Assembly (NCBI GenBank): GCA_028276365.1
Contig: JAPYWL010000003.1
Coordinates: forward strand, 4,272-68,271
Length of the DNA: 64,000 bases
DNA from: Deltaproteobacteria bacterium
GTDB taxonomy: Bacteria > DRYD01
Direction: 5' to 3'
The notes beneath the pieces are model-generated. The model saw nothing but the letters and a program-made list of their open reading frames with translations, made no database searches and was not told the origin of the DNA. A program made the position numbers and the translations under genes. Numbering within the stretch: position 1 is the first letter of the stretch; the number at the start of each line of letters is the position of its first letter. This document shows, one piece after another, positions 2,935 to 56,548 of the stretch.

Positions 2935-4251
2935 TTAAGAAAAACTAGATCTATGTTGCATCTCTTGAATTATTTCTTCATAAATCTTTTCTTTATTTTT
3001 TCTTCGTAGATCTCTCTTAGAAGGATAATCAAGATTAACTTTAGAATTATTACCTTCCCAAAGTAAAGCAGCAACTCCATCTAACTGATCCTTCATTTCC
3101 TGACAATATGGACAAGTTCTATAATCATGCGGAGAATCAGAATGCTTAGGTTCAGGATACATAAATATTTTACCTTCATAATTCCTTAAAATTACTCTAC
3201 TATCAGACATAGAAATAACATAATTAGGCATAACAGGAATCTTACCCCCCCCACCAGGAGCATCCACTACAAAATAAGGATTAGCTAATCCCGAAGTATG
3301 ACCTCTTAAAAACTCCATTATTTCTATTCCTTTAGAAACCCTAGTTCTAAAATGCTCTAAGCCCTCAGTTAAATCACATTGATAGATATAGTAAGGCCTA
3401 CATCTATTTTTTAATAATAATTGAAATAATTTTTTCATAACAAATGGACAATCATTAACACCTCTTAATAAAACAGTCTGATTCCCCAAAACTACTCCCG
3501 CATCAGCTAGCATATTTAAAGCTCTAGAGGAATATTTAGTTATCTCTTTAGGATGATTAAAGTGAGTATTTAAATAAATAGGATGATATTTTTTAAGAAT
3601 ATTAACTAATTTTTCCGTAATTCTCATAGGATTAGTTACAGGCATCCTAGAACCTAATCTTATAATTTCTACATGCTCAATAGATCTTAAACCTTGTAAA
3701 ATTTTTTCAATTTTCTCATCACTTAAAGAAAGTGAATCCCCTCCCGAAACAACTATATCCCTTATTTCTTTATGTTTTTTTATATATTCCAACCCCATTT
3801 CTATTTGAGACCAAGGTGTAGGTCTATAACTTACCATTCTACTCCTTGTACAATGCCTACAATAAACAGAACATCTATCAGTAACTAAAAATAATACTCT
3901 ATCAGGATATCTATGAACTACTCCAGGAACAGGCATATCTACATCTTCTGCTAAAGGATCTTCCAAATCAAATGTAGACTTCTCTAATTCATAAATAATA
4001 GGAACTGCTTGTCTTCTTATAGGATCGTTAATATCATTAGGATCCATTAGTAATGCATAATACGGTGTAATTCCCATTGTAAAAATTTCACCTAATCCCT
4101 CTTTAATAGCTCTTTCTTCTTCATTAGTAACATTAATTATTTTTTTAAGCTTTTCTAAAGTAGTTATTCTATTTTGAGTTTGCCAATGAAAATCTTCAAA
4201 TTGCTCTTGAGTAACATCTTTCCACATTTCTATTTCTGTCCAATGTCTCAT
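2935..4251 (-). CDS. kamA: Lysine 2,3-aminomutase (KamA-family radical SAM enzyme)
   Basis: Radical-SAM motif CSVYCRHCTRS, the PGGGGKIP motif typical of the KamA family, and a length of 438 aa. Confidence 0.85.
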   Translation of the reverse strand: MRHWTEIEMWKDVTQEQFEDFHWQTQNRITTLEKLKKIINVTNEEERAIKEGLGEIFTMGITPYYALLMDPNDINDPIRRQAVPIIYELEKSTFDLEDPLAEDVDMPVPGVVHRYPDRVLFLVTDRCSVYCRHCTRSRMVSYRPTPWSQIEMGLEYIKKHKEIRDIVVSGGDSLSLSDEKIEKILQGLRSIEHVEIIRLGSRMPVTNPMRITEKLVNILKKYHPIYLNTHFNHPKEITKYSSRALNMLADAGVVLGNQTVLLRGVNDCPFVMKKLFQLLLKNRCRPYYIYQCDLTEGLEHFRTRVSKGIEIMEFLRGHTSGLANPYFVVDAPGGGGKIPVMPNYVISMSDSRVILRNYEGKIFMYPEPKHSDSPHDYRTCPYCQEMKDQLDGVAALLWEGNNSKVNLDYPSKRDLRRKNKEKIYEEIIQEMQHRSSFS

Positions 4252-9741: not shown

Positions 9742-10294
9742 CTAACTTTGGTTAGATTCTAAATTATCAGACATACGGAAAAAAGCAACCAAAGCTATTA
9801 CCCATCCAATAATAGCTAAAATCCCAAATAAAATACTTCCTCCTAATACCCCTAATCCAGCATATTTAAATAAATTATCATTAGTATATTCATAAAATAT
9901 ATCTAAGTATTTTTTAGAGAAAAAACCGGACAAAATAAAACTTAACCATAAAACAAATAAACCTACAAAAAACATAACCCCAAAAGCAGATTTTGCTCCA
10001 AATGAATGACCCCCGATAAAAATAGAAGCAATAGAACTAGCAGATAATATAACAAATAAAATCACACCAATAATAACAATTATAAAACTATAGATAAAAT
10101 TTTTAAATATATCTCCATTATTTAATTTCTTAGAAAAATTAAAAATCCCAATTATATATGCTACAGCCCCCCCCCAACGAAATAATAGCCCCAATTAAGG
10201 GTATAAAACCTCCCACCATAGACCCTAATAACCCAAAAGCACATAACTTCTTTTCTAAACTAATATCAACAACTTCTTGTAATTTGTTATCCAT
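9742..10294 (-). pseudogene. Multi-TM membrane protein gene interrupted by a frameshift in a G9 homopolymer (possibly DUF996-like)
   Basis: The ATG at 10294 is preceded by AAAGGAGGT. The reading frame stops at 10139 after a poly-G tract (plus-strand C9 at 10167-10175). The downstream 150-aa ORF (9742-10194) continues in the -1 frame, with only a TTG and no SD. Confidence 0.65.
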
Positions 10295-10435
10295 AATAAA
10301 ATTATACCTCCTTTGAAATTTCTAATTTAATTATTTTAAATCCAAAAAATAATTACTCTATAGGTATTAAATACTCTAAAAAAAAATCCTCTTTAAAAAT
10401 TAATTTAAAAAGAAAAAACATCTGAAAAAAATAAT

Positions 10436-19817: not shown

Positions 19818-19833
19818 AATTCAATTTCCTCCT

Positions 19834-19947
19834 TTATCCTTGTACTTGCTTATGTTTTTTATTTTTACAAATAACTCTTACTTTCCCTTTCCTTTTTATA
19901 ACCTTACAATAAGCACAAATTTTTTTTACACTCGCCCTTACTTTCAT
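19834..19947 (-). CDS. rpmJ: 50S ribosomal protein L36 (zinc-binding form)
   Basis: Hand translation gives [37 protein letters not shown]. An AAGGAGGT SD lies upstream. The gene is absent from the ORF track because of its size. Confidence 0.9.
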
Positions 19948-20065
19948 AAAATAATCTACCTCCTTAATTAAACTTCCCTACCTTAATATTTTATATAACT
20001 TCCTAAAAAATAATCCCTGTAAAAATTATATAATAAAAAAATAAAAAAATAAAAGAAAATTAAAT

Positions 20066-21081: not shown

Positions 21082-21267
21082 TTACCAACTAGCTTTTCTA
21101 ACACCAGGTAATAAAGCATTATAAGCCATTTTCCTAAGACACATCCTACAAATTCCAAACATTCTAAAATAGCCTCTAGGTCTACCACAAACTTGACATC
21201 TATTTCTAAATCTTACTTTAAATTTAGGTTCTCTTTTCCATTTTTCTAATTGCCCTTTCCTTGGCAT
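21082..21267 (-). CDS. rpsN: 30S ribosomal protein S14, zinc-binding type Z (61 aa)
   Basis: [20 protein letters not shown] and the C-terminal PGVRKASW. Confidence 0.95.
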
Positions 21268-21315
21268 AAAAAACCCCCTTTTTAGTTCTTTTATTAAACT
21301 ATTTCTCTAATTAAT

Positions 21316-22920: not shown

Positions 22921-23136
22921 TCACTCCTTAATTTCTTTATTTTTTTTAACAGATAAAAAATACTTTATTCTAGCTATTTTTTTTCTTAATAAAGAAAGAA
23001 TATGGGGTTTAAAATCAGGAGAAATATTCATTTTTAATTTATTATCAAAATATTCTTTTTTAGTTTTTCTTAATTCATTAACTAAATCTTGATATTCTAA
23101 GGATCTAAGAAATTCCAATTCCTTCTTAGATTTCAT
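22921..23136 (-). CDS. rpmC: 50S ribosomal protein L29
   Basis: Start re-set to the ATG at 23136, after AAAGGAGGTG. The product is a small helical protein between rplP and rpsQ. Confidence 0.9.
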
Positions 23137-23159
23137 TAGAAAACTCACCTCCTTTTAAA

Positions 23160-27887: not shown

Positions 27888-29150
27888 TTAATTTATTTTA
27901 TAATAAAAAAAGGTAACTATAGAAAAACAAATAATAAATAAGGAAAAAATTTTATAAACAGTTAATAAATTAATAAAGTAGGCAATATTACCTAATACAA
28001 AAGCTCCTAAAAAACCTAAAGATACATTCAATAAAGAATATAACGAAACAACTTTAGCAATATAAGAAGAATCCGTTACAATCTGAACTCTATTATTAGA
28101 TACTCCAAAAATAACTGATTGCAAAAATCCAACAAAAGGAATAAAGTAATATATATAATTAGGAATAAAAGAAATAACAAGAAATAAAGTACCATATAAA
28201 AACATAATGACCTCTTCAGAAAAATTAACAACAAAACTGGGACTAAATGAAGCTACAAAAATAGCACCAATAATTGCTCCTATGCCTAACAAAGAAAGTA
28301 TCCAAGAAAAATTAGAAATACTTCCCTTTAAAACATTCTTAGTAAAAACTTGTAATAAAGATAATAAAGATAACCCTAAAAAATTAATTATAGCTATACT
28401 TATAAAACTTTTAAGTATTAATTTATTGTTATATATGTATTTTATAACCTCTTTTATTTCCTTAATTATAGTGTTTCTTAGGTCATTTTTATCATTTTTA
28501 TTATTATAATGGATTTCAGGTAAATTTTTAGAAAAAATTAATAATAAAATAAGAGGTAGAAAAGAAATAGTATTAAATAAAAATCCCATATATAATCCAA
28601 ATTTTTTAGCTAAGAATGCTGCAAAAATAGGGCCAATAACTCTTGATAAATTAAACGTCAATCCCTGTAAACTAAAAGCACTAGTTAAATCTTTTTCTTG
28701 GCTAATATTTTTTATTAAAGTACTTCTAGCAGGAAAATAAAAACTCATGGTAATCCCACTAATAAAACCTAATATTAACAAATAAATTCCATTTATTTTA
28801 TTAGTATAAACTAAATAAGTTATAAAACAAGCATTAAAAAAATCAACAAATTGAATAATAATTAAAACTTTTCTATACCCTAACCTATCTATAACAATTC
28901 CACTAACAAAAGAAAAAATAAGAGATGGTAAAAATCTAATTAAATTAAAATTACCAGTAAATTGAGAAGCTAAATTAGGGTTAGGGAAAATAATATTAAT
29001 TAACCATTGCCTTAAAGTATAATCAACCCAGTTACCTATTAGCGATATACCTTGAAAAAACCAAAAATAAAAATAAAACGGGTTTTTTAAAGCCCTAAAA
29101 GGATTTTCTATTGGAAAATTACTATCTTTGTTAGTTATATTTATACTCAT
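27888..29150 (-). CDS. MFS-type transporter (MFS_3 / EntS-like) embedded in the S10 operon
   Basis: 420 aa with about 12 hydrophobic segments. The N-terminal FRALKNPFYFYFWFFQGISLIGNW pattern is typical of the EntS-like MFS subfamily. The gene is co-directional with rpsJ and rplC, with 24-nt and 31-nt gaps to them. Confidence 0.7.
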   Translation of the reverse strand: MSINITNKDSNFPIENPFRALKNPFYFYFWFFQGISLIGNWVDYTLRQWLINIIFPNPNLASQFTGNFNLIRFLPSLIFSFVSGIVIDRLGYRKVLIIIQFVDFFNACFITYLVYTNKINGIYLLILGFISGITMSFYFPARSTLIKNISQEKDLTSAFSLQGLTFNLSRVIGPIFAAFLAKKFGLYMGFLFNTISFLPLILLLIFSKNLPEIHYNNKNDKNDLRNTIIKEIKEVIKYIYNNKLILKSFISIAIINFLGLSLLSLLQVFTKNVLKGSISNFSWILSLLGIGAIIGAIFVASFSPSFVVNFSEEVIMFLYGTLFLVISFIPNYIYYFIPFVGFLQSVIFGVSNNRVQIVTDSSYIAKVVSLYSLLNVSLGFLGAFVLGNIAYFINLLTVYKIFSLFIICFSIVTFFYYKIN

Positions 29151-29174: not shown

Positions 29175-29489
29175 CTAAATTGTTTTAATAACAACTTCAA
29201 CACCTTCTGGTAAATCTATTTTTTTAATTTCCTCAATAGTTTTAGGAGTGTAATCAGATATTTCAAGTAATCTTTTATGAATTTTTAATTCAAAATGTTC
29301 TCCTGATCTTTTATCAACGTGAGGAGAACGTGTAACACAAAAAAGTCTTCGTTTTACTGGTAAATAAACAGGTCCTATTACTTTAGCACCTGTTCCTAAT
29401 GCCATATCTATTATTTTATTAACAGATTTATCTAATAATTTATGATCCCAACTCATTAATTTTATTCTTATCTTAGGTAATTTACTCAT
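29175..29489 (-). CDS. rpsJ: 30S ribosomal protein S10
   Basis: IRIKLMSWDHKLLD...PLPVKRRLFCVTRSPHVDKRSGEHFE. Confidence 0.95.
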   Translation of the reverse strand: MSKLPKIRIKLMSWDHKLLDKSVNKIIDMALGTGAKVIGPVYLPVKRRLFCVTRSPHVDKRSGEHFELKIHKRLLEISDYTPKTIEEIKKIDLPEGVEVVIKTI

Positions 29490-29683
29490 ACTTTAAAAAC
29501 CTCCATCTATTATAAATATCTTTGTAATTATTTTATTCAATAAAAAATCTTTTTTTCCTTTTTATAATTAAATAAAATGAATTAATCTCTATTACAGGAA
29601 ATCAGTTTAAGTGAAAATAAAGGCTGAATTTTATTATCTTTCTTAGTTATTTTTTAAATTAATCCTAATACTTTTTTAAATTC

Positions 29684-39225: not shown

Positions 39226-40188
39226 TTAAACTTTATTTTTGTAAAAATTAGCTATAATCTGTTTAGCAATAATATAAGCATTATAAGCAGCACCCCTTAA
39301 TAGGTTATCACTAACACTCCAAAATCCTAACAAATTACTTTCTAATTTCCTTATTCTAGCTATATGAACTTCATTAGTGTTAGAAACATTATAAGGAACA
39401 GGTAAATTAGAATTATTTAGCCAAATCTTAAGAGCTTTTGTAATATCCCCAAATTCAATTAACTCATCAATTAATTTATTATAATTAAAATCTCTTTTAG
39501 TTTTAACATAAACCACTTGACTATGAGCTCTAATAACGGGAACCCTAACAGTAAAAGGGAAAACCTTAAAATTAGAGTTAAGTATCTTATTAGATTCAAG
39601 AATAATCTTTTTCTCTTCAGTACAAATAATATTTTCTAAGTTAGAATCATCAAAAGATCCTATAACAGGAAACAAATTATAAGCTATAGGATAAGGTAAA
39701 TTTTTAGCAGTAAAATCGTTATTTTTAATTTGATACTTAAATTCTTCTAAAGCTTTTTTACCTGCCCCAGAAACAGATTGATAAGTAGCAACATAAACCT
39801 CTTCTATACCATAGTTATCTAAAATAGGCTTTAGTGGAATAACAAGCTGTATAGTAGAACAATTAGGATTAGCTATTACCTTTTTATCAGGCTTTATTTT
39901 ATTTAAATATTGATTATCTAACTCGGGTACAACTAAATTAACATCAGGATCTAATCTAAAAAAAGAACTATTATCAATAACAAAGGTATCAGCATATATT
40001 TTAGGAGCTATATATGCACTAACTTCATTATCAACACATAAAAAAACTATATCCTGACTCCTTAATTTATCAAAATCAATATTATCATTAGAACCTATAG
40101 GGTAAATTTCCCAATCTTCATTATTTTGAATTAATTTAGCTAATTCACTACCAACTAACCCATTTATTCCTACTATAGATACTCTCAT
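39226..40188 (-). CDS. asd: Aspartate-semialdehyde dehydrogenase
   Basis: MRVSIVGINGLVGSEL, NPNCSTIQL (active-site Cys) and SVSGAGKKA. Confidence 0.9.
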   Translation of the reverse strand: MRVSIVGINGLVGSELAKLIQNNEDWEIYPIGSNDNIDFDKLRSQDIVFLCVDNEVSAYIAPKIYADTFVIDNSSFFRLDPDVNLVVPELDNQYLNKIKPDKKVIANPNCSTIQLVIPLKPILDNYGIEEVYVATYQSVSGAGKKALEEFKYQIKNNDFTAKNLPYPIAYNLFPVIGSFDDSNLENIICTEEKKIILESNKILNSNFKVFPFTVRVPVIRAHSQVVYVKTKRDFNYNKLIDELIEFGDITKALKIWLNNSNLPVPYNVSNTNEVHIARIRKLESNLLGFWSVSDNLLRGAAYNAYIIAKQIIANFYKNKV

Positions 40189-40200
40189 AAAAAATAATAA

Positions 40201-40265
40201 GCTGGAGTATTTGTATTCCGCCCTACTTCAAAAATTTTAATATTTTAAACTACCCAGCAGGCGGT
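40201..40265 (-). promoter_or_regulatory. GC-rich pseudoknot-type structured element, copy 1 (with 28-nt insertion), between murG and asd
   Basis: The minus strand reads ACCGCC-T-GCTGGGTA-[28 nt AT-rich]-GGCGG-AATACAAA-TACTCCAGC, followed by TTATTATTTTTT and the ATG. It shares its core with the elements at 46171 and 47519. Confidence 0.5.
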
Positions 40266-41544: not shown

Positions 41545-42606
41545 TTAATATTCTATTATATATTTTCCTAATTTTATCAATAAATCCTTTTTCACCTGAT
41601 TTAAATTTAGTTTTCCTTCATTATTATTCATTAACTTTTCATTAGTAATTTGTATATTAATTTTATAAAAACCATCTAAAAAATAAGTATAAAAAAGCAA
41701 AGCATTACTATCAAAAACATAATAATTCAAAATAGGATCATATAAAAAATTAGATAAATCTATATCTTCTAAATTCAATTTTTCCTTTGAAATAGAAATT
41801 TTTATTTCTAATTTAAAATTATCTTTATAATCTTTAAAATTATCTTTATAATCATCTTCTGATTCATTTTTTTGTATATCATTTTTGTATAGAATATCTT
41901 GAGTTTTAATTAAATTTATAATGATTTCATTATCATCAATTTTAACTATCTTAATTGAATAATATGATAATAAATCTTGATTATATTTTTCCTGTTTTAG
42001 ATTTGATAATATCAATTCCTTTAATTGTATATTTTGGATATTTTTTAGCTTACTTTTGTAAAACTTATTAAATAAGTATAATATTTTTTCATTACCTTTA
42101 GATAAATCAATAGGAGATAAATTAGAAATATTAGTAATATAAGGAGAAGCCCCCTTTGATAGTAAATAATTAGTAATAATTAAGTTCTGGTTCATAACTG
42201 AATAATGTAAAGGAGTATTACCAAAAATATCCTTAGCGTTTATATCATAAAAATTTAATAATATCTTTAAAGCAGAAAAATTATTTAATTTACAAGCCCA
42301 ATGCAAAGGTGTTAAATTATTATCATCTTTTAAATTTAGTGAAATAAAATAATTACTCATAAATTTTAGAACATCTATTTTATTATACATTATAGCCCAA
42401 ATAACTGGATTATATCCATTATAATCTTTTCTTACTAAAATAAAGTTATCTTCTTCTAAAATTTTTCTAATACCTTTTATATCATTTTTTATTATTAATT
42501 CTTTAAAATTTTTTAAATATTCATCCTCATAATATCCAAAAGCAAAGCCACTAAACATTATTATTAAAAAGCAATAAAACAAAAATAAAGTTAATTTTTT
42601 AAACAT
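41545..42606 (-). CDS. Secreted ankyrin-repeat protein
   Basis: Signal-peptide-like N-terminus and at least 3 ANK repeats (TPLHWACKLNN..., GNTPLHYSVMNQN...). Confidence 0.75.
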   Translation of the reverse strand: MFKKLTLFLFYCFLIIMFSGFAFGYYEDEYLKNFKELIIKNDIKGIRKILEEDNFILVRKDYNGYNPVIWAIMYNKIDVLKFMSNYFISLNLKDDNNLTPLHWACKLNNFSALKILLNFYDINAKDIFGNTPLHYSVMNQNLIITNYLLSKGASPYITNISNLSPIDLSKGNEKILYLFNKFYKSKLKNIQNIQLKELILSNLKQEKYNQDLLSYYSIKIVKIDDNEIIINLIKTQDILYKNDIQKNESEDDYKDNFKDYKDNFKLEIKISISKEKLNLEDIDLSNFLYDPILNYYVFDSNALLFYTYFLDGFYKINIQITNEKLMNNNEGKLNLNQVKKDLLIKLGKYIIEY

Positions 42607-45810: not shown

Positions 45811-46152
45811 TTAAGTAGTAACCTCTACCATCCACTTAAGATAATCTAAATTACCTGCTTTAATATCAATTACAATTATCTCAGGAACAGTATAAGAATG
45901 ATATTTTTTAATAGTTTCTTCTAACTCTTCTAATTTTTCTTCAGTAGTTTTTATAATCAATAGAGCTTCTTCCTGAATTTCTACATTACCCTTCCAAGTA
46001 AATATAGATTTTAAATTATTAATAATATTAACACAAGCAGCAAGTCTATTATTAATTAATATCCTTGCGATATTTTCAGCTTCTATAATATTTGGGCAGG
46101 TTACAAATAAAACTTTAAAAGGAGAATTTTGTAAATTATCTAATTTCTTCAT
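45811..46152 (-). CDS. cutA: Divalent-cation tolerance protein CutA
   Basis: RLAACVNII...SIFTWKGNVE...LIIKT...HSYTVPEIIVIDI...YLKWM. Confidence 0.9.
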   Translation of the reverse strand: MKKLDNLQNSPFKVLFVTCPNIIEAENIARILINNRLAACVNIINNLKSIFTWKGNVEIQEEALLIIKTTEEKLEELEETIKKYHSYTVPEIIVIDIKAGNLDYLKWMVEVTT

Positions 46153-46170
46153 AATAAAAATATAAAATAA

Positions 46171-46207
46171 GCTGGGATATTTATATTCCGCCTACCCAGC
46201 AAGCGGT
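46171..46207 (-). promoter_or_regulatory. GC-rich pseudoknot-type structured element, copy 2 (minimal form), in the cutA leader
   Basis: The minus strand reads ACCGCT-T-GCTGGGTA-GGCGG-AATATAAA-TATCCCAGC, followed by an 18-nt T-rich tract and the ATG. Confidence 0.6.
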
Positions 46208-46236
46208 ATTACATTATTTTTAATTATTATATTATT

Positions 46237-46761
46237 TTATTTTAAATCTGTTAAATCCGGTAAATTTTGTATTAAAGTTTGTAATTTATTAGCCATTTCT
46301 ACTAATTCCTGTTTCATTATTCCCTTCATTTTATAATACTGATAAACTTTATTAGATAATTCAGATATGAAACTTAATACATTTAAAAAAGATTGTTCTT
46401 GAATATCATTCCAAACCTTTTTTAATTCACTCTTAGATAAAGATAATTCTAAATTAATATTTGATAACTTAGTTAAATAATTATCTATTTCATTTAATAA
46501 ATTTTCATCCTTAGTGTTTAGATATTCTTTTAATTTTAAAAGTATAGCATTAACCTGAACTTTGTACTCATTAAACTTAGGGTTTTCAATATTCATTTTT
46601 TTTATATCATAATCCAAAGCTAAAATATAATTAAGTATTAATTGATTTAAAGAATGAACATAAGAAGAAATTAAATTAAAATTTTTAGTTTTAACAGCAG
46701 TTTGTAGAGTACTTATAACTCGCTGAATTTCTTCATTTGCTTTATTTAATTCATTATCCAT
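46237..46761 (-). CDS. Hypothetical all-helical protein
   Basis: 174-aa ORF, tightly coupled downstream of the thioredoxin-fold gene. I recognise no motifs. Confidence 0.4.
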   Translation of the reverse strand: MDNELNKANEEIQRVISTLQTAVKTKNFNLISSYVHSLNQLILNYILALDYDIKKMNIENPKFNEYKVQVNAILLKLKEYLNTKDENLLNEIDNYLTKLSNINLELSLSKSELKKVWNDIQEQSFLNVLSFISELSNKVYQYYKMKGIMKQELVEMANKLQTLIQNLPDLTDLK

Positions 46762-46780: not shown

Positions 46781-47500
46781 TTAATGTTTATGAAGTGGAT
46801 TCAATTGATGATCTACAAAATGTTTAATAAACTCAGCATATTTGTTTTCAGGTAAAGCTCCTTCTATATCATCTTCAAATACTTTTTGATCTTTTGTTAT
46901 TAGCTTTAAAACAGTTTTAGGAACACCCATTATATTATATTTAATAGCATAATCTTGAAATTCAGAAACTTCCACATTAATAGCTTTAATATTATCACTA
47001 ACAACCGAAAAAGCAGTGGAATTAATAGTCATAATAGGACAATATGGACAAGTAGGAGTAACAAATACCCATAATTCTAAAACTGCCCCATTACTCTTTA
47101 ACATATTATCTATTTCTTTTACAGTATTTATAGTTTTTTCACTTATAGGTAGTTGATCATTAGCTACCATAAGAATAGAATTTAATAACCAAGTGAACTC
47201 ATAACCAGCAGGAATCCCCAAAAACTTAAAATTATAATCCTTATTTGATCTTAATATTATAGCCGGTACTTCCTTTGAAATACCATACTTATTAGCTAAC
47301 TCCACATCAACTAAAGGATTATATAAAACTAATTTTAAATTATCTAAGATTTCAGTTAATTCTTTCAGTAATTGTTCCGTATCAGGACAATACTCACAAC
47401 CTATTTTTTGGGAAAATAATAGCACTTCAGTTAGTTTTGCTAAACTTCCTACTTGTCTTTTTATTTCCTGTCTATCTTGTTCAGTAATAAACATATTCAT
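46781..47500 (-). CDS. Protein disulfide oxidoreductase with two thioredoxin-fold units (glutaredoxin-like PDO type)
   Basis: Two CxxC sites (CEYC and CPYC) in two repeated Trx-like halves. 239 aa. Strong AAAGGAGGGA SD. Confidence 0.75.
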   Translation of the reverse strand: MNMFITEQDRQEIKRQVGSLAKLTEVLLFSQKIGCEYCPDTEQLLKELTEILDNLKLVLYNPLVDVELANKYGISKEVPAIILRSNKDYNFKFLGIPAGYEFTWLLNSILMVANDQLPISEKTINTVKEIDNMLKSNGAVLELWVFVTPTCPYCPIMTINSTAFSVVSDNIKAINVEVSEFQDYAIKYNIMGVPKTVLKLITKDQKVFEDDIEGALPENKYAEFIKHFVDHQLNPLHKH

Positions 47501-47518: not shown

Positions 47519-47557
47519 GCTGTAATCATTTATATTCCGCTATTACAGCTTAGCGGT
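47519..47557 (-). promoter_or_regulatory. GC-rich pseudoknot-type structured element, copy 3, between fabH and the PDO gene
   Basis: The minus strand reads ACCGCT-AA-GCTGTAAT-AGCGG-AATATAAATG-ATTACAGC, followed by ATTACTAGAAAGGAGGGA and the ATG. Confidence 0.55.
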
Positions 47558-54727: not shown

Positions 54728-56548
54728 TTATTTAGCAGTTTGAACAGCTATTATTTTTCTTATAACAGTAACTCTAATTAGGCCTGGATATTTTAAATTA
54801 TTTTCAATAGCTTTAGAAATATCTTTAGCCAATTTATATACGTCGTTATCTAGTACCATATCAGGTTTAACAAAAACAATAACTTCTTTACCTCCTTGTA
54901 AAACATAAGCCTTTTCAACACCAGCAAAAGACATAGCCAATTCTTCTAATTTCTGTAATCTTTGGATATATAACTGATAAGTTTCCCTTCTAGCTCCAGG
55001 TCTAGAAGCAGATATAGCATCAGCTATCTGTACTATTAAATCCTCTAAAGTTTCTTGAGGTACTTCATTATGATGACTTGCAATAGCTCGAACCACTTCA
55101 TCTTTTTCCCCGTATATTTTAGCAATTTTAGCACCCGCAATAGCATGAGGTTCTCCATTAGTTTCCTCTAAAACTTTACCTATATCATGTAATAAAGCTG
55201 CTCTTCTACATATTTCTACATCTGCTCCCAATTCTGTTGCTAATAATGTAGCTATCTGAGAAACTTGAATACTATGCTTTAGTAAATTTTGGCCATAACT
55301 TGCTCTATACTTCATCTTACCCAATAAATTAATCAAATCTGGATGTAAATCATAAACTTTAGATTGAATAGCAGCATTCTCGCCTTCCTCTTGGATTTTT
55401 AAATTTATTTCTTTTTCTATTTGATCATAAACTTCTTGAATAGCAATAGGATTTATTTTACCAATACTTATAAGCTTTTCTAAAGTTAATCTAGCTTTCT
55501 CCCTCCTTATAGGATCAAAAGAAGAAACTAAAACCACATCAGAATTATCATCTATAATTAAGTCAACACCCGTTATTTCTTCAAAAGCTTTTATATTTCT
55601 TCCTTCTTTTCCTATTATTCTACCTTTTAATTCCTCAGATGGCAAAACAATAGGGGAAGTAGTATTTTCAGAAACAGTATCAGCTGTAATTCTACTTAAA
55701 GTATTTAAAAGAATTCTTTTAGCTTTAAATTCAGCATTTCTTAGATATTCTTGCTCTATTTTTTGAGATACTATTAACAATTCAGTTTTTAAATTTTCTT
55801 CAGTTTTTTTTATTACTATTTCTTTAGCCGCTTCAGGAGTTAAATTAGATATTTTTAATAATTCTTCTTCTATTTTATTTTTCAATTGATTAACATACTC
55901 CATTTTTTGCTCTATCTCTTTTTCTTTAATTAGAATTTCTTCTTGCTTTTGTTGTAATTCTTCTTTTTTAATATCTATTTCTTTAAATTTAAGGGATAAT
56001 TGTTTTTCTTTTTCCCAAAGCTCAATTTTCATATTTTCAATTTTATCCCATTCTTTATTTATTAACTCAAATTTTTCTATAGCTTTTTTATTTATTTCTT
56101 CAGCTTCTTTTTTAGCTTTCTCTATTAATTTCTCATTATCCCAAATTATTTTTTCCTTTTCATCTTTAAGTTTTTGAATTTCCTTATTTAGATTACTAAT
56201 TTCATTATCTAGTTTTTGAAGCTCTTTTATTTTTAAATTTATATCATTTTCTAAAGAATTTAACTTTCTTTCTAACAATTCTTTCTTATTATTTAGTTCT
56301 TCAATATTAGTTTTTAAAGCTTTTTCCTGACTAATTAAATCATTGAGTTTTTGTTCTAAATTCTTAAATTCCTGTATTTCTTGGGAGTTAATAAAGTTTT
56401 GAGATAATTTCAAATTATCCTCTTTTTTATATTCTTCTTGTTTTAATTCTCTTTTTTCTAACTTAGATAATTTATAAAAAATAAATCCTAAAAAAATTAA
56501 AAGAATTACTATAAAAAATATTAATAACACAATTAAAAAATTACTCAT
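54728..56548 (-). CDS. rny: Ribonuclease Y
   Basis: N-terminal TM segment, a long coiled coil, a KH domain (GRIIGKEGRNIKAFE) and an HD domain (LLHDIGK). Confidence 0.9.
   Translation of the reverse strand: MSNFLIVLLIFFIVILLIFLGFIFYKLSKLEKRELKQEEYKKEDNLKLSQNFINSQEIQEFKNLEQKLNDLISQEKALKTNIEELNNKKELLERKLNSLENDINLKIKELQKLDNEISNLNKEIQKLKDEKEKIIWDNEKLIEKAKKEAEEINKKAIEKFELINKEWDKIENMKIELWEKEKQLSLKFKEIDIKKEELQQKQEEILIKEKEIEQKMEYVNQLKNKIEEELLKISNLTPEAAKEIVIKKTEENLKTELLIVSQKIEQEYLRNAEFKAKRILLNTLSRITADTVSENTTSPIVLPSEELKGRIIGKEGRNIKAFEEITGVDLIIDDNSDVVLVSSFDPIRREKARLTLEKLISIGKINPIAIQEVYDQIEKEINLKIQEEGENAAIQSKVYDLHPDLINLLGKMKYRASYGQNLLKHSIQVSQIATLLATELGADVEICRRAALLHDIGKVLEETNGEPHAIAGAKIAKIYGEKDEVVRAIASHHNEVPQETLEDLIVQIADAISASRPGARRETYQLYIQRLQKLEELAMSFAGVEKAYVLQGGKEVIVFVKPDMVLDNDVYKLAKDISKAIENNLKYPGLIRVTVIRKIIAVQTAK

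Follow-up and report, generated by a model that had tools for sequence, protein, structure and literature searches.

What is the short GC-rich element that recurs ahead of cutA, a protein disulfide oxidoreductase (PDO) gene and asd in a 64,000-nt stretch of contig JAPYWL010000003.1 (this whole stretch is called the window below), and what could it do? The original prediction, made from the window alone, described an H-type pseudoknot in which helix P1 encloses a loop and helix P2 pairs that loop with a segment further downstream. The observation was confirmed, and the structural interpretation is supported and greatly strengthened by the analysis of relatives. Judged by comparative sequence evidence, the element is a ~37-nt H-type RNA pseudoknot on the gene-sense strand, is under purifying selection, and appears to define a new family, absent from Rfam 15, of conserved cis-acting leader RNA. 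This would add to the catalogue of structured RNAs a well-supported family, in which independent compensatory changes number in the dozens, from uncultured lineages of hot-spring type, namely metagenome-assembled genomes (MAGs) resembling Candidatus (Ca.) Calescibacteriota.

Three copies in the window

All copies were read on the minus (gene-sense) strand, and the three predicted sequences were recovered exactly (see Table 1 for their parts). Copy 2, the minimal form, reads ACCGCU-U-GCUGGGUA-GGCGG-AAUAUAAAU-AUCCCAGC from 46207 to 46171. Copy 3 reads ACCGCU-AA-GCUGUAAU-AGCGG-AAUAUAAAU-G-AUUACAGC from 47557 to 47519, and copy 1 reads ACCGCC-U-GCUGGGUA-(28 nt)-GGCGG-AAUACAAAU-AC-UCCAGC from 40265 to 40201. 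The insertion in copy 1 is predicted by folding to form a weak hairpin of its own, by UUUAAAA/UUUUGAA pairing. The copies are single, 1.3-6 kb apart and all intergenic, in gaps of 84-115 nt between co-directional genes. They end 18 nt (cutA), 18 or 24 nt (PDO) and 12 nt (asd, measured from P2) upstream of the ATG; AGGAGG lies between copy 3 and the PDO start codon, and no Shine-Dalgarno (SD) sequence is present in the asd leader.

The 13-nt core GCGGAATAYAAAT has three exact matches in the window, all on the minus strand, compared with a mean of 0.00 in 100 dinucleotide-preserving shuffles. No fourth copy was found in the 64 kb by a covariance-model search with filters off. Note that orientation within the window alone proves nothing, because almost all genes of this ~23% G+C sequence are on the minus strand. 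There is an apparent likeness, which could be due to chance, between the core GCGGAAUAC (e.g. window 40213-40221) and GCGG(U)AAUAC in the 16S rRNA 530 loop (515F primer region).

Covariation and conservation

Further copies were collected with the pattern ACCGCYN{7,12}RGCGGAATAYAAAT, in which P1 and the linker (loop L3) are fixed and P2 is free. Matches were obtained at 78 loci in a species-representative genome collection and at least 120 loci in a metagenome collection. An earlier, looser scan of viral contigs yielded 95 loci, and in that first viral scan alone the enrichment of P2 helices was borderline (P ~0.015 for short loops). A covariance model built on P2 only, with the pseudoknot annotated, was then used to align 61 matches (54 distinct). 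In this fitted alignment 95.6% of cells are in standard pairs, compared with 69.0±1.2% in shuffled controls (0 of 500 reach the observed value) and 26-52% when partners were slid by 1-3 columns. Changes on both sides were found in 9 of 9 modelled P2 pairs, with 93.5% of cells paired. P1 comprises four invariant pairs (CCGC/GCGG) and a covarying fifth, the closing pair, which varies as had been predicted (UA 22, CG 15, UG 12, other 3). Support for P1 comes from this fifth pair and from the geometry, since the other four of its five pairs never vary.

Because a fitted alignment is shaped by its own model, an alignment-free permutation test was also run. For 42 distinct low-GC pattern matches, which hold 36 distinct loop sequences, the longest helix anchored after the linker has a mean of 6.25, versus 3.44±0.19 when loops and tails were permuted (z ~15); helices of at least 5 bp were found for 79% of real pairs and 16% of permuted ones. 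At loci with at least 36% GC (126 matches) the mean helix is 3.27, versus 2.93±0.08 for permuted sequences, an excess that is small but real, and about one-tenth of the matches at such loci are genuine members. The covariance-model alignment and the permutation test were used in place of a MAFFT alignment, which mis-registers P2. Single-sequence folding was uninformative: z-scores of the nested minimum free energy range from −0.8 to −2, and for copy 2 the minimum favours an extended P1 hairpin. The structural evidence is therefore comparative, not energetic.

A descriptor scan that left P1 free was applied to 657 kb of low-GC loci. It recovered 59 copies, including secondary copies and orthologues that the pattern had not selected, and CCGC/GCGG was present in 59 of 59; other P1 sequences occurred at decoy level (12 matches versus 16 decoy matches). 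P1 and P2 pairing is preserved in the further copies. Not every detail of the original prediction held. Of the supposedly conserved ACCGC, CCGC is invariant but the first A is A, U or C in relatives. Likewise, the covariation claimed between the P2 helices of copies 2 and 3 stands for the in-register replacement of GG/CC by UA/UA, but not for the extra UA/UA pairs of copy 2, which require a bulge and are lost in relatives (GGGUU there). The copy 2 helix kept in orthologues is GCUGGG/CCCAGC (6 bp) only, and two further P2 pairs exist in copy 3 alone. The A-rich linker is nearly invariant across the family as AAUAYAAAU, with natural variants only at position 1 (A to U), 5 (Y to G) and 8 (A to G).

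The consensus is 5'-(A)CCGCY, L1 (1-3 nt), the P2 5' strand (5-10 nt of any sequence), L2 (0-5 nt or a 28-33-nt insert), RGCGG, L3 (AAUAYAAAU plus 0-3 nt) and the P2 3' strand. L1, L2, the offset before P2 and the P1-P2 junction are all variable. Each of the three window copies has P1, L3, a P2 of at least 5 bp, sense orientation and a start codon no more than 50 nt away.

Orthologous sites in relatives

Relatives were fetched through homologues of the neighbouring 639-aa Fe-S protein (95, 87, 76 and 75% identity). In all of them, down to 75% identity, the motif is found upstream of PDO, of cutA and, where synteny holds, of asd, and the spacers around it have diverged in sequence and length. 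Orthologues of copy 2 were located in L100, L101, L104 and L106 (loci are cited as L plus a number), with the motif before cutA in L101, L104, L106 and L180; those of copy 3 in L100, L104, L106, L002, L266 and L292; and those of copy 1 in L100 and L101, where the asd-leader insertion is kept at 28-33 nt. The changes at these sites are those expected of an RNA helix on the gene-sense strand. G·U and G-C interchange at one P2 pair of copy 1; in the P2 of copy 2, U-A becomes U·G ahead of the L101 cutA and G-C becomes G·U in L205/L249; and U·G, U-A and C-G interchange at the inner P1 pair. The exact CutA protein is encoded on four metagenome contigs with near-identical motifs, in one of which the outer P2 pair of the PDO copy has changed from G-C to G·U. 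The argument that the G·U pairs are valid only on the gene-sense strand was thus upheld across the copies of relatives. In L108 and L109 (47-49% protein identity) synteny is lost and no copy was found near the Fe-S gene.

Distribution of the family

Approximately 40 further distinct copies came from the genome and metagenome pattern scans, counted among the matches listed. Sources of copies are low-GC uncultured MAGs, some contigs of higher GC, viral contigs and one spacer of a clustered regularly interspaced short palindromic repeat (CRISPR) array. About 25 of the genome matches are in low-GC (22-33%) uncultured MAGs, with 1-4 exact-pattern copies per genome; those that carry a label are Ca. 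Calescibacterium sp. SKYB82 and "MAG: bacterium" (isolates of several studies). Each of these matches has a perfect 5-10-bp complement of part of the P1 loop that starts 0-3 nt after ...AAAU, and the P2 sequence differs nearly every time. Examples are GGCUGGUUAA/UUAACCAGCU, UUCUGGAAA/UUUCCAGAA, GGCAAGGAU/AUCCUUGCU, AGCCAAGU/ACUUGGCU, CCUAGGU/ACCUAGG, GUCAGGG/CCCUGGC and UUUGGGG/CCCCAAA. The window lineage is probably related to Calescibacteriota, judging from the protein sequences: its CutA and the CutA of MAG SKW172 share 61% identity, and the Frr of SKW172 is in turn 86% identical to Frr of Ca. Calescibacterium SKYB82. From this relationship, together with the PDO gene, we infer that the organism may be thermophilic.

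Viral or mobile copies lie ahead of ssb and of small open reading frames (ORFs) in L223, the L240 group, L232, L060, L043 (= L226) and L014. The CRISPR spacer at 1264-1302 of L268 (also in L300) corresponds to a copy in L232 (722-760 in the minus-strand view) with one mismatch in 39 nt; the L268 array has at least 24 units with the 29-nt repeat CTTCTTAACCCACACGGTTCAGATGAAAC. L232, which carries two motif copies, looks like a CRISPR-targeted virus or plasmid. No annotated phage was found by BLAST with a motif-bearing viral contig.

At L169 (CANQBY010000034.1, uncultured Bacilli; minus strand, ~3371-3458) a TTGACA-17-TATAGT promoter precedes, and an intrinsic terminator follows, two tandem copies spaced 49 nt apart; there is no ORF, and rpsL-rpsG-fusA begins ~230 nt further downstream. 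This locus looks like a stand-alone small RNA of two pseudoknots, possibly a decoy or sponge.

Two variations on the motif were also seen. In some lineages a second small hairpin is present between P2 and the ribosome-binding site: L119 (6597-6660), L135 (5730-5790) and L155/L128, which belong to MAGs JAUQQQ01 and JBCNVB01, and also L153, L187, L124, L223 and L289. In JAUQQQ01 the second hairpin is itself repeated (CCCAAAAC...GGUUUUGG). Separately, several gut taxa share an identical motif-like sequence with an 8-bp P2 (UCUGCUCG/CGAGCAGG), which either shortly precedes a Upf1-like helicase ORF or lies inside it (L161/L141/L123/L267; MAGs of Bacteroidales and Oscillospiraceae with 52-54% GC). 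The sequence is probably carried on a mobile element, and its membership in the family is uncertain.

Gene context

All copies with readable flanks are sense to the downstream ORF, and a start codon is found within ~50 nt; orientation therefore speaks against a DNA repeat. The ORF starts 17-49 nt after the linker, typically 10-26 nt after P2, and 37-49 nt after the linker where the extra small hairpin intervenes. A same-strand upstream ORF often ends −1 to 40 nt before the motif, so that many copies are operon-internal. A few copies follow a divergent gene and a good promoter, as in the leaders of H+-pyrophosphatase (H+-PPase).

Downstream genes were assigned with Pfam and NCBIfam. Those found in more than one lineage are cutA (several genera), an asparaginyl-tRNA synthetase (AsnRS)-type synthetase (3), H+-PPase (3), frr (2), L31 (2), Jag/KhpB (2) and acetyl-CoA synthetase (2). 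Those found once encode PDO, asd, L27, S2, trigger factor, pyruvate phosphate dikinase (PPDK), GH57, an HIT protein, a short-chain dehydrogenase/reductase resembling enoyl reductase, and several hypothetical proteins. When genes preceded by the motif in other genera were sought in the window by tblastn, no orthologue was found. Leader motifs usually precede the genes of one pathway; this one is unusual in preceding ribosomal-protein, translation-factor, energy-metabolism and viral genes, often in place of a recognisable SD sequence.

Relation to known RNAs and repeats

Searches of Rfam 15 with cmscan gave no match to the motif at the gathering score, at E <= 10 for the window or at E <= 1 for seven other loci. 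No known family was recovered by this check, and the view that the motif is none of the familiar riboswitch or pseudoknot classes is borne out. The literature searched contained no description of the core sequence strings or, by keyword, of the motif, and only work on preQ1 and on general noncoding RNA discovery was retrieved; a 50-genome survey of noncoding RNAs does not mention these genes.

The closest fold is that of preQ1-I (RF00522) and, more loosely, the S-adenosylmethionine (SAM) riboswitches SAM-II and SAM-V, which are also minimal H-type pseudoknots (~34-37 nt) in 5' leaders. Shared with preQ1-I are a P1 of 5 bp, an A-rich L3 whose length would let it occupy the P1 minor groove, a P2 formed by loop and 3' tail, and a site just upstream of the ribosome-binding region; the resemblance is one of fold only. 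The motif fails the RF00522 model, which has a conserved L2 cytidine and a AAAAAACUA-type tail. Here, in contrast, P1 is invariant, P2 is long (5-10 bp), freely variable and without SD, and the junction is unconserved. Moreover, the motif genes (cutA, PDO, asd, ribosomal proteins, frr, tig, asnS, hppA) are unrelated to queuosine or SAM, and the motif is also viral.

Other likenesses are to systems of different kinds. As in CsrA-regulated leaders and the CsrB/RsmZ sponges, a short RNA element lies by the ribosome-binding site of many unrelated genes and a stand-alone RNA holds repeated copies (L169), an analogy of function only; the motif is a pseudoknot, not a GGA hairpin loop, and there is one sponge-like locus, in another phylum. 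The 5' stabilisers of B. subtilis and the exonuclease-resistant RNAs (xrRNAs) of viruses share with it a compact pseudoknot with conserved tertiary nucleotides, placed 5' of a cistron and often operon-internal, and in xrRNAs too the hairpin loop pairs with a 3' segment. Nevertheless, the motif is far smaller than flaviviral xrRNAs and its distance from the start codon is constrained. Type III antitoxins (ToxI, CptI, TenpI) likewise have pseudoknotted units of ~36-49 nt with an A-rich AAAU-type segment and, as at L169, tandem copies between promoter and terminator. However, the window copies are single and precede housekeeping genes, no Rfam match was obtained, and the L169 repeats are followed by the terminator and then rpsL, with no ToxN/AbiQ-like ORF. 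This identity was rejected, since a toxin gene is absent both at L169 and among the neighbours of the window copies. Repetitive extragenic palindromic (REP) sequences and bacterial interspersed mosaic elements are similarly GC-rich, repeated and intergenic in an AT-rich genome; the motif differs in being one-oriented, start-codon-proximal and interleaved instead of simply palindromic, with a helix sequence that varies by copy.

Possible functions

We lean, with less than even confidence, towards a constitutively folded leader module that a conserved trans-acting macromolecule would recognise, with an effect on translation initiation. In the geometry of an H-type pseudoknot the L3 strand must run along P1. 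Since L1, L2 and the P1-P2 junction vary and L3 is nearly invariant, what is conserved is the P1/L3 face and not a junction pocket. The invariant face would be the P1 helix with the AAUAYAAAU strand in its groove, and candidate partners are the 30S subunit, a ribosomal protein or a global RNA-binding protein, whose binding would set translation initiation of the immediately downstream cistron. P2 would act as a structural clamp only, and the A/U-rich spacer after the pseudoknot might serve as a ribosome landing zone. P2 3' strands vary from copy to copy and do not consistently resemble an SD or anti-SD sequence, so that no SD or AUG appears to be sequestered, and SD sequestration was rejected as a mechanism on this account. 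Because nothing pairs with SD or AUG and most copies lack a terminator, no switch is visible, and the simplest reading is a constitutive signal; the element would hide neither SD nor AUG, and a small-metabolite sensor would be improbable. Macromolecular recognition at initiation is suggested by the unrelated housekeeping and viral genes, the proximity to the start codon, the frequent absence of SD and the tandem RNA at L169. Use of the motif by viral or mobile contigs, and its targeting by CRISPR, is expected of a host expression signal.

In a bolder version, which we consider doubtful, the translation machinery or a global RNA-binding protein would have the pseudoknot as its dedicated docking site. 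The element would then be a structured signal for initiation or regulation that does not depend on an SD and is common to a candidate phylum, other bacteria of hot-spring type and their viruses, with L169-like multi-copy RNAs as sponges for the same factor. Jag/KhpB, an RNA-binding protein, is a candidate for that factor because its own gene carries the motif (in two genera). If the ribosome or a global RNA-binding protein does recognise the motif, bacteria would possess either a new level of control after transcription or an initiation signal that is structured. With only 37 nt, the motif lends itself to direct work on its biochemistry and structure, and it could become a portable expression part for thermophiles.

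Several points weigh against recognition at translation initiation. Although 19 of 24 motif-bearing genes have no SD-like sequence, ribosomal-protein genes, tig, asnS and H+-PPase among them, the depletion is not significant (SD-like in 5 of 24 motif leaders versus 20 of 62 window genes, P = 0.43). The scan patterns fixed P1 and most of L3, and invariance outside the low-GC lineage is thus partly by construction. The tandem small RNA-like case at L169 is single and from another phylum, and may not be representative. Conservation of the P1/L3 face could be explained just as well by a demanding tertiary fold that resistance to nucleases requires, or by a ligand-binding pocket in a P1/L3 triplex.

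The first of these two possibilities leads to an mRNA stabiliser or processing barrier. Here a triple-helical pseudoknot would block 5'->3' decay (RNase J type) or mark or limit RNase Y cleavage, and in long co-directional transcripts the downstream cistron would outlive the upstream one, as with a bacterial xrRNA or 5' stabiliser; if so, a bacterial counterpart of viral xrRNAs would have been found. We regard this as rather unlikely, although the many copies that follow a same-strand stop codon by −1 to 40 nt are operon-internal at functional boundaries and the downstream genes are typically abundant housekeeping or viral ones, positions and products that fit it about as well as they fit recognition at initiation. 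The lineage also encodes RNase Y (an RNase_Y_N/KH/HD gene in L002/L100, with an orthologue at window 54728-56548), no expression platform is visible, and conserved tertiary nucleotides, typical of viral xrRNAs, are what an exonuclease-resistant RNA would have. On the other hand, a pure barrier needs no 10-26-nt proximity to ATG and leaves the stand-alone tandem pair with its own promoter and terminator unexplained, and a 37-nt H-type knot is not known to resist bacterial exonucleases. The ligand pocket would imply a riboswitch for a global signal ((p)ppGpp, PPi (pyrophosphate)/AMP, Mg2+, polyamine or temperature), built like preQ1-I or SAM-II with the ligand in the P1/L3 triplex. The size and architecture are aptamer-like, the core being invariant and the peripheral helix free to covary, and the site is a 5' leader; the tandem arrangement at L169 is followed by a terminator; PPi/AMP-linked enzymes (H+-PPase, PPDK, acetyl-CoA synthetase, AsnRS, HIT) are encoded downstream; and CNNM/CorC genes are present in the asd operon. 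Set against generic riboswitch features, the family does have a conserved P1/L3 face, but its junction is variable, no platform is visible and the genes are heterogeneous. Ribosomal proteins, frr, tig, jag, PDO, cutA, asd, GH57 and phage ssb form no coherent regulon, and in viruses the motif precedes unrelated small ORFs. Conservation is lacking in L1, L2 and the junction, the place where ligands of the preQ1-I type bind, and there is no overlap with SD, AUG or terminator to transduce binding, most copies having no U-tract after P2. We consider a riboswitch improbable, and the analogy to one implied by the original prediction is its weakest part, owing to the heterogeneous genes and the lack of a visible expression platform or conserved junction.

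Two further explanations are contradicted by the data. It is very improbable that the motif is an intrinsic terminator or attenuator of the upstream gene, with P2 as the hairpin before a U-rich tract. The copies do lie between genes, and UUAUUUUAU and UUAUUAUUUUUU come after P2 in copies 1 and 2, respectively, but copy 3 and most members have no U-tract there (e.g. AUUACUAGAAAGGAGG, UACCUAAAUAAACU, UACCUAGACCU, AUACCGUUUUAAACU), the P2 loop is 13-45 nt, and U-rich stretches are simply the background at 23% GC. A terminator would also leave the conserved P1 and L3 unexplained. This identity was rejected because a scan found no minus-strand terminator at the three sites and the U-tract is not consistent. 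Least credible of all is a DNA-level element, whether a CCGC...GCGG transcription-factor palindrome, a promoter (ACCGC as −35, TAYAAAT as −10) or a repeat like REP or a miniature inverted-repeat transposable element. CCGC-N-GCGG is palindromic, TAYAAAT resembles a −10 box, and ACCGC is 17-18 nt from TAYAAA in copies 2 and 3; elsewhere, however, that spacing is 15-20 nt and reaches 45-50 nt. A transcription-factor site or promoter would not explain why the spacer is complementary to a segment past the "−10", and on the opposite strand each G·U pair would become an A·C mismatch. Copy 2 is preceded, at a distance of 18 nt, by a near-consensus sigma70-type site (TTAACA-17-TATAAT, 11/12; 46226-46254, minus); this site is not kept in L100, L101, L104 or L106 and may be a chance match in AT-rich DNA. 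A promoter was rejected on the grounds of the variable spacing and this lack of conservation. A REP or transposable-element identity was rejected from the single orientation and the loop diversity among low-GC matches: the copies are strictly sense and start-codon-proximal, unlike REPs, and a recently spread repeat is excluded by P2 differing between copies.

Feature coordinates

Table 1. Copies of the pseudoknot in the window, their parts and the genes that follow them.
Feature	Position	Strand	Remarks
Copy 2 (cutA leader), minimal 37-nt pseudoknot	46171-46207	-	Covariance model R1: 40.4 bits, E = 2.7e-8
Copy 2, P1 5' strand CCGCU	46202-46206	-	Partner is GGCGG at 46188-46192
Copy 2, P2 5' strand GCUGGG, inside P1 loop	46195-46200	-	Complement of 46171-46176
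Copy 2, P1 3' strand GGCGG	46188-46192	-	
Copy 2, L3 linker, AAUAUAAAU plus AU	46177-46187	-	Conserved AAUAYAAAU
Copy 2, P2 3' strand CCCAGC	46171-46176	-	
A/U-rich spacer (18 nt) from pseudoknot to cutA ATG	46153-46170	-	Without Shine-Dalgarno
cutA, directly downstream of copy 2	45811-46152	-	NCBIfam CutA, E = 2.6e-30
Copy 3 (PDO leader)	47519-47557	-	R1: 59.1 bits
Copy 3, P1 5' strand; L1; P2 5' strand	47552-47556; 47550-47551; 47542-47549	-	
Copy 3, P1 3' strand; L3; P2 3' strand	47537-47541; 47527-47536; 47519-47526	-	
PDO gene, downstream of copy 3	46781-47500	-	NCBIfam TIGR02187, E = 8.8e-54
Copy 1 (asd leader), with insertion	40201-40265	-	
Copy 1, P1 5' strand; L1; P2 5' strand	40260-40264; 40259; 40253-40258	-	
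Copy 1, L2 with 28-nt A/U-rich insertion	40223-40252	-	30 nt including UA
Copy 1, P1 3' strand; L3; P2 3' strand	40218-40222; 40207-40217; 40201-40206	-	
asd (aspartate-semialdehyde dehydrogenase), downstream of copy 1	39226-40188	-	NCBIfam PRK14874, E = 1.6e-70

Other features of the window

Gaps of 190-250 nt without an ORF of at least 80 aa were found at 19818-20065, 21089-21315, 22925-23159, 29490-29683, 2695-2934 and 10195-10435. Four of them lie inside the ribosomal-protein cluster, and none gave an Rfam match at the gathering threshold; they may hold small ribosomal-protein genes or leaders. At 3241-3262 and 10159-10181 this 23% GC genome has homopolymer runs of 8-9 C, which read as G on the gene strand.

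A 420-aa ORF (27888-29150) lies between the genes for S10 (29175-29489) and L3 (27230-27856). Its orthologues in L104 and L106 have MFS_1/MFS_3 domains, which points to a transporter gene inside the S10 ribosomal-protein operon, kept in at least three relatives. An ankyrin-repeat protein is encoded at 41545-42606, between a YdjM-like hydrolase and murG; it is conserved in relatives and has weak matches to Legionella Dot/Icm Ank effectors.

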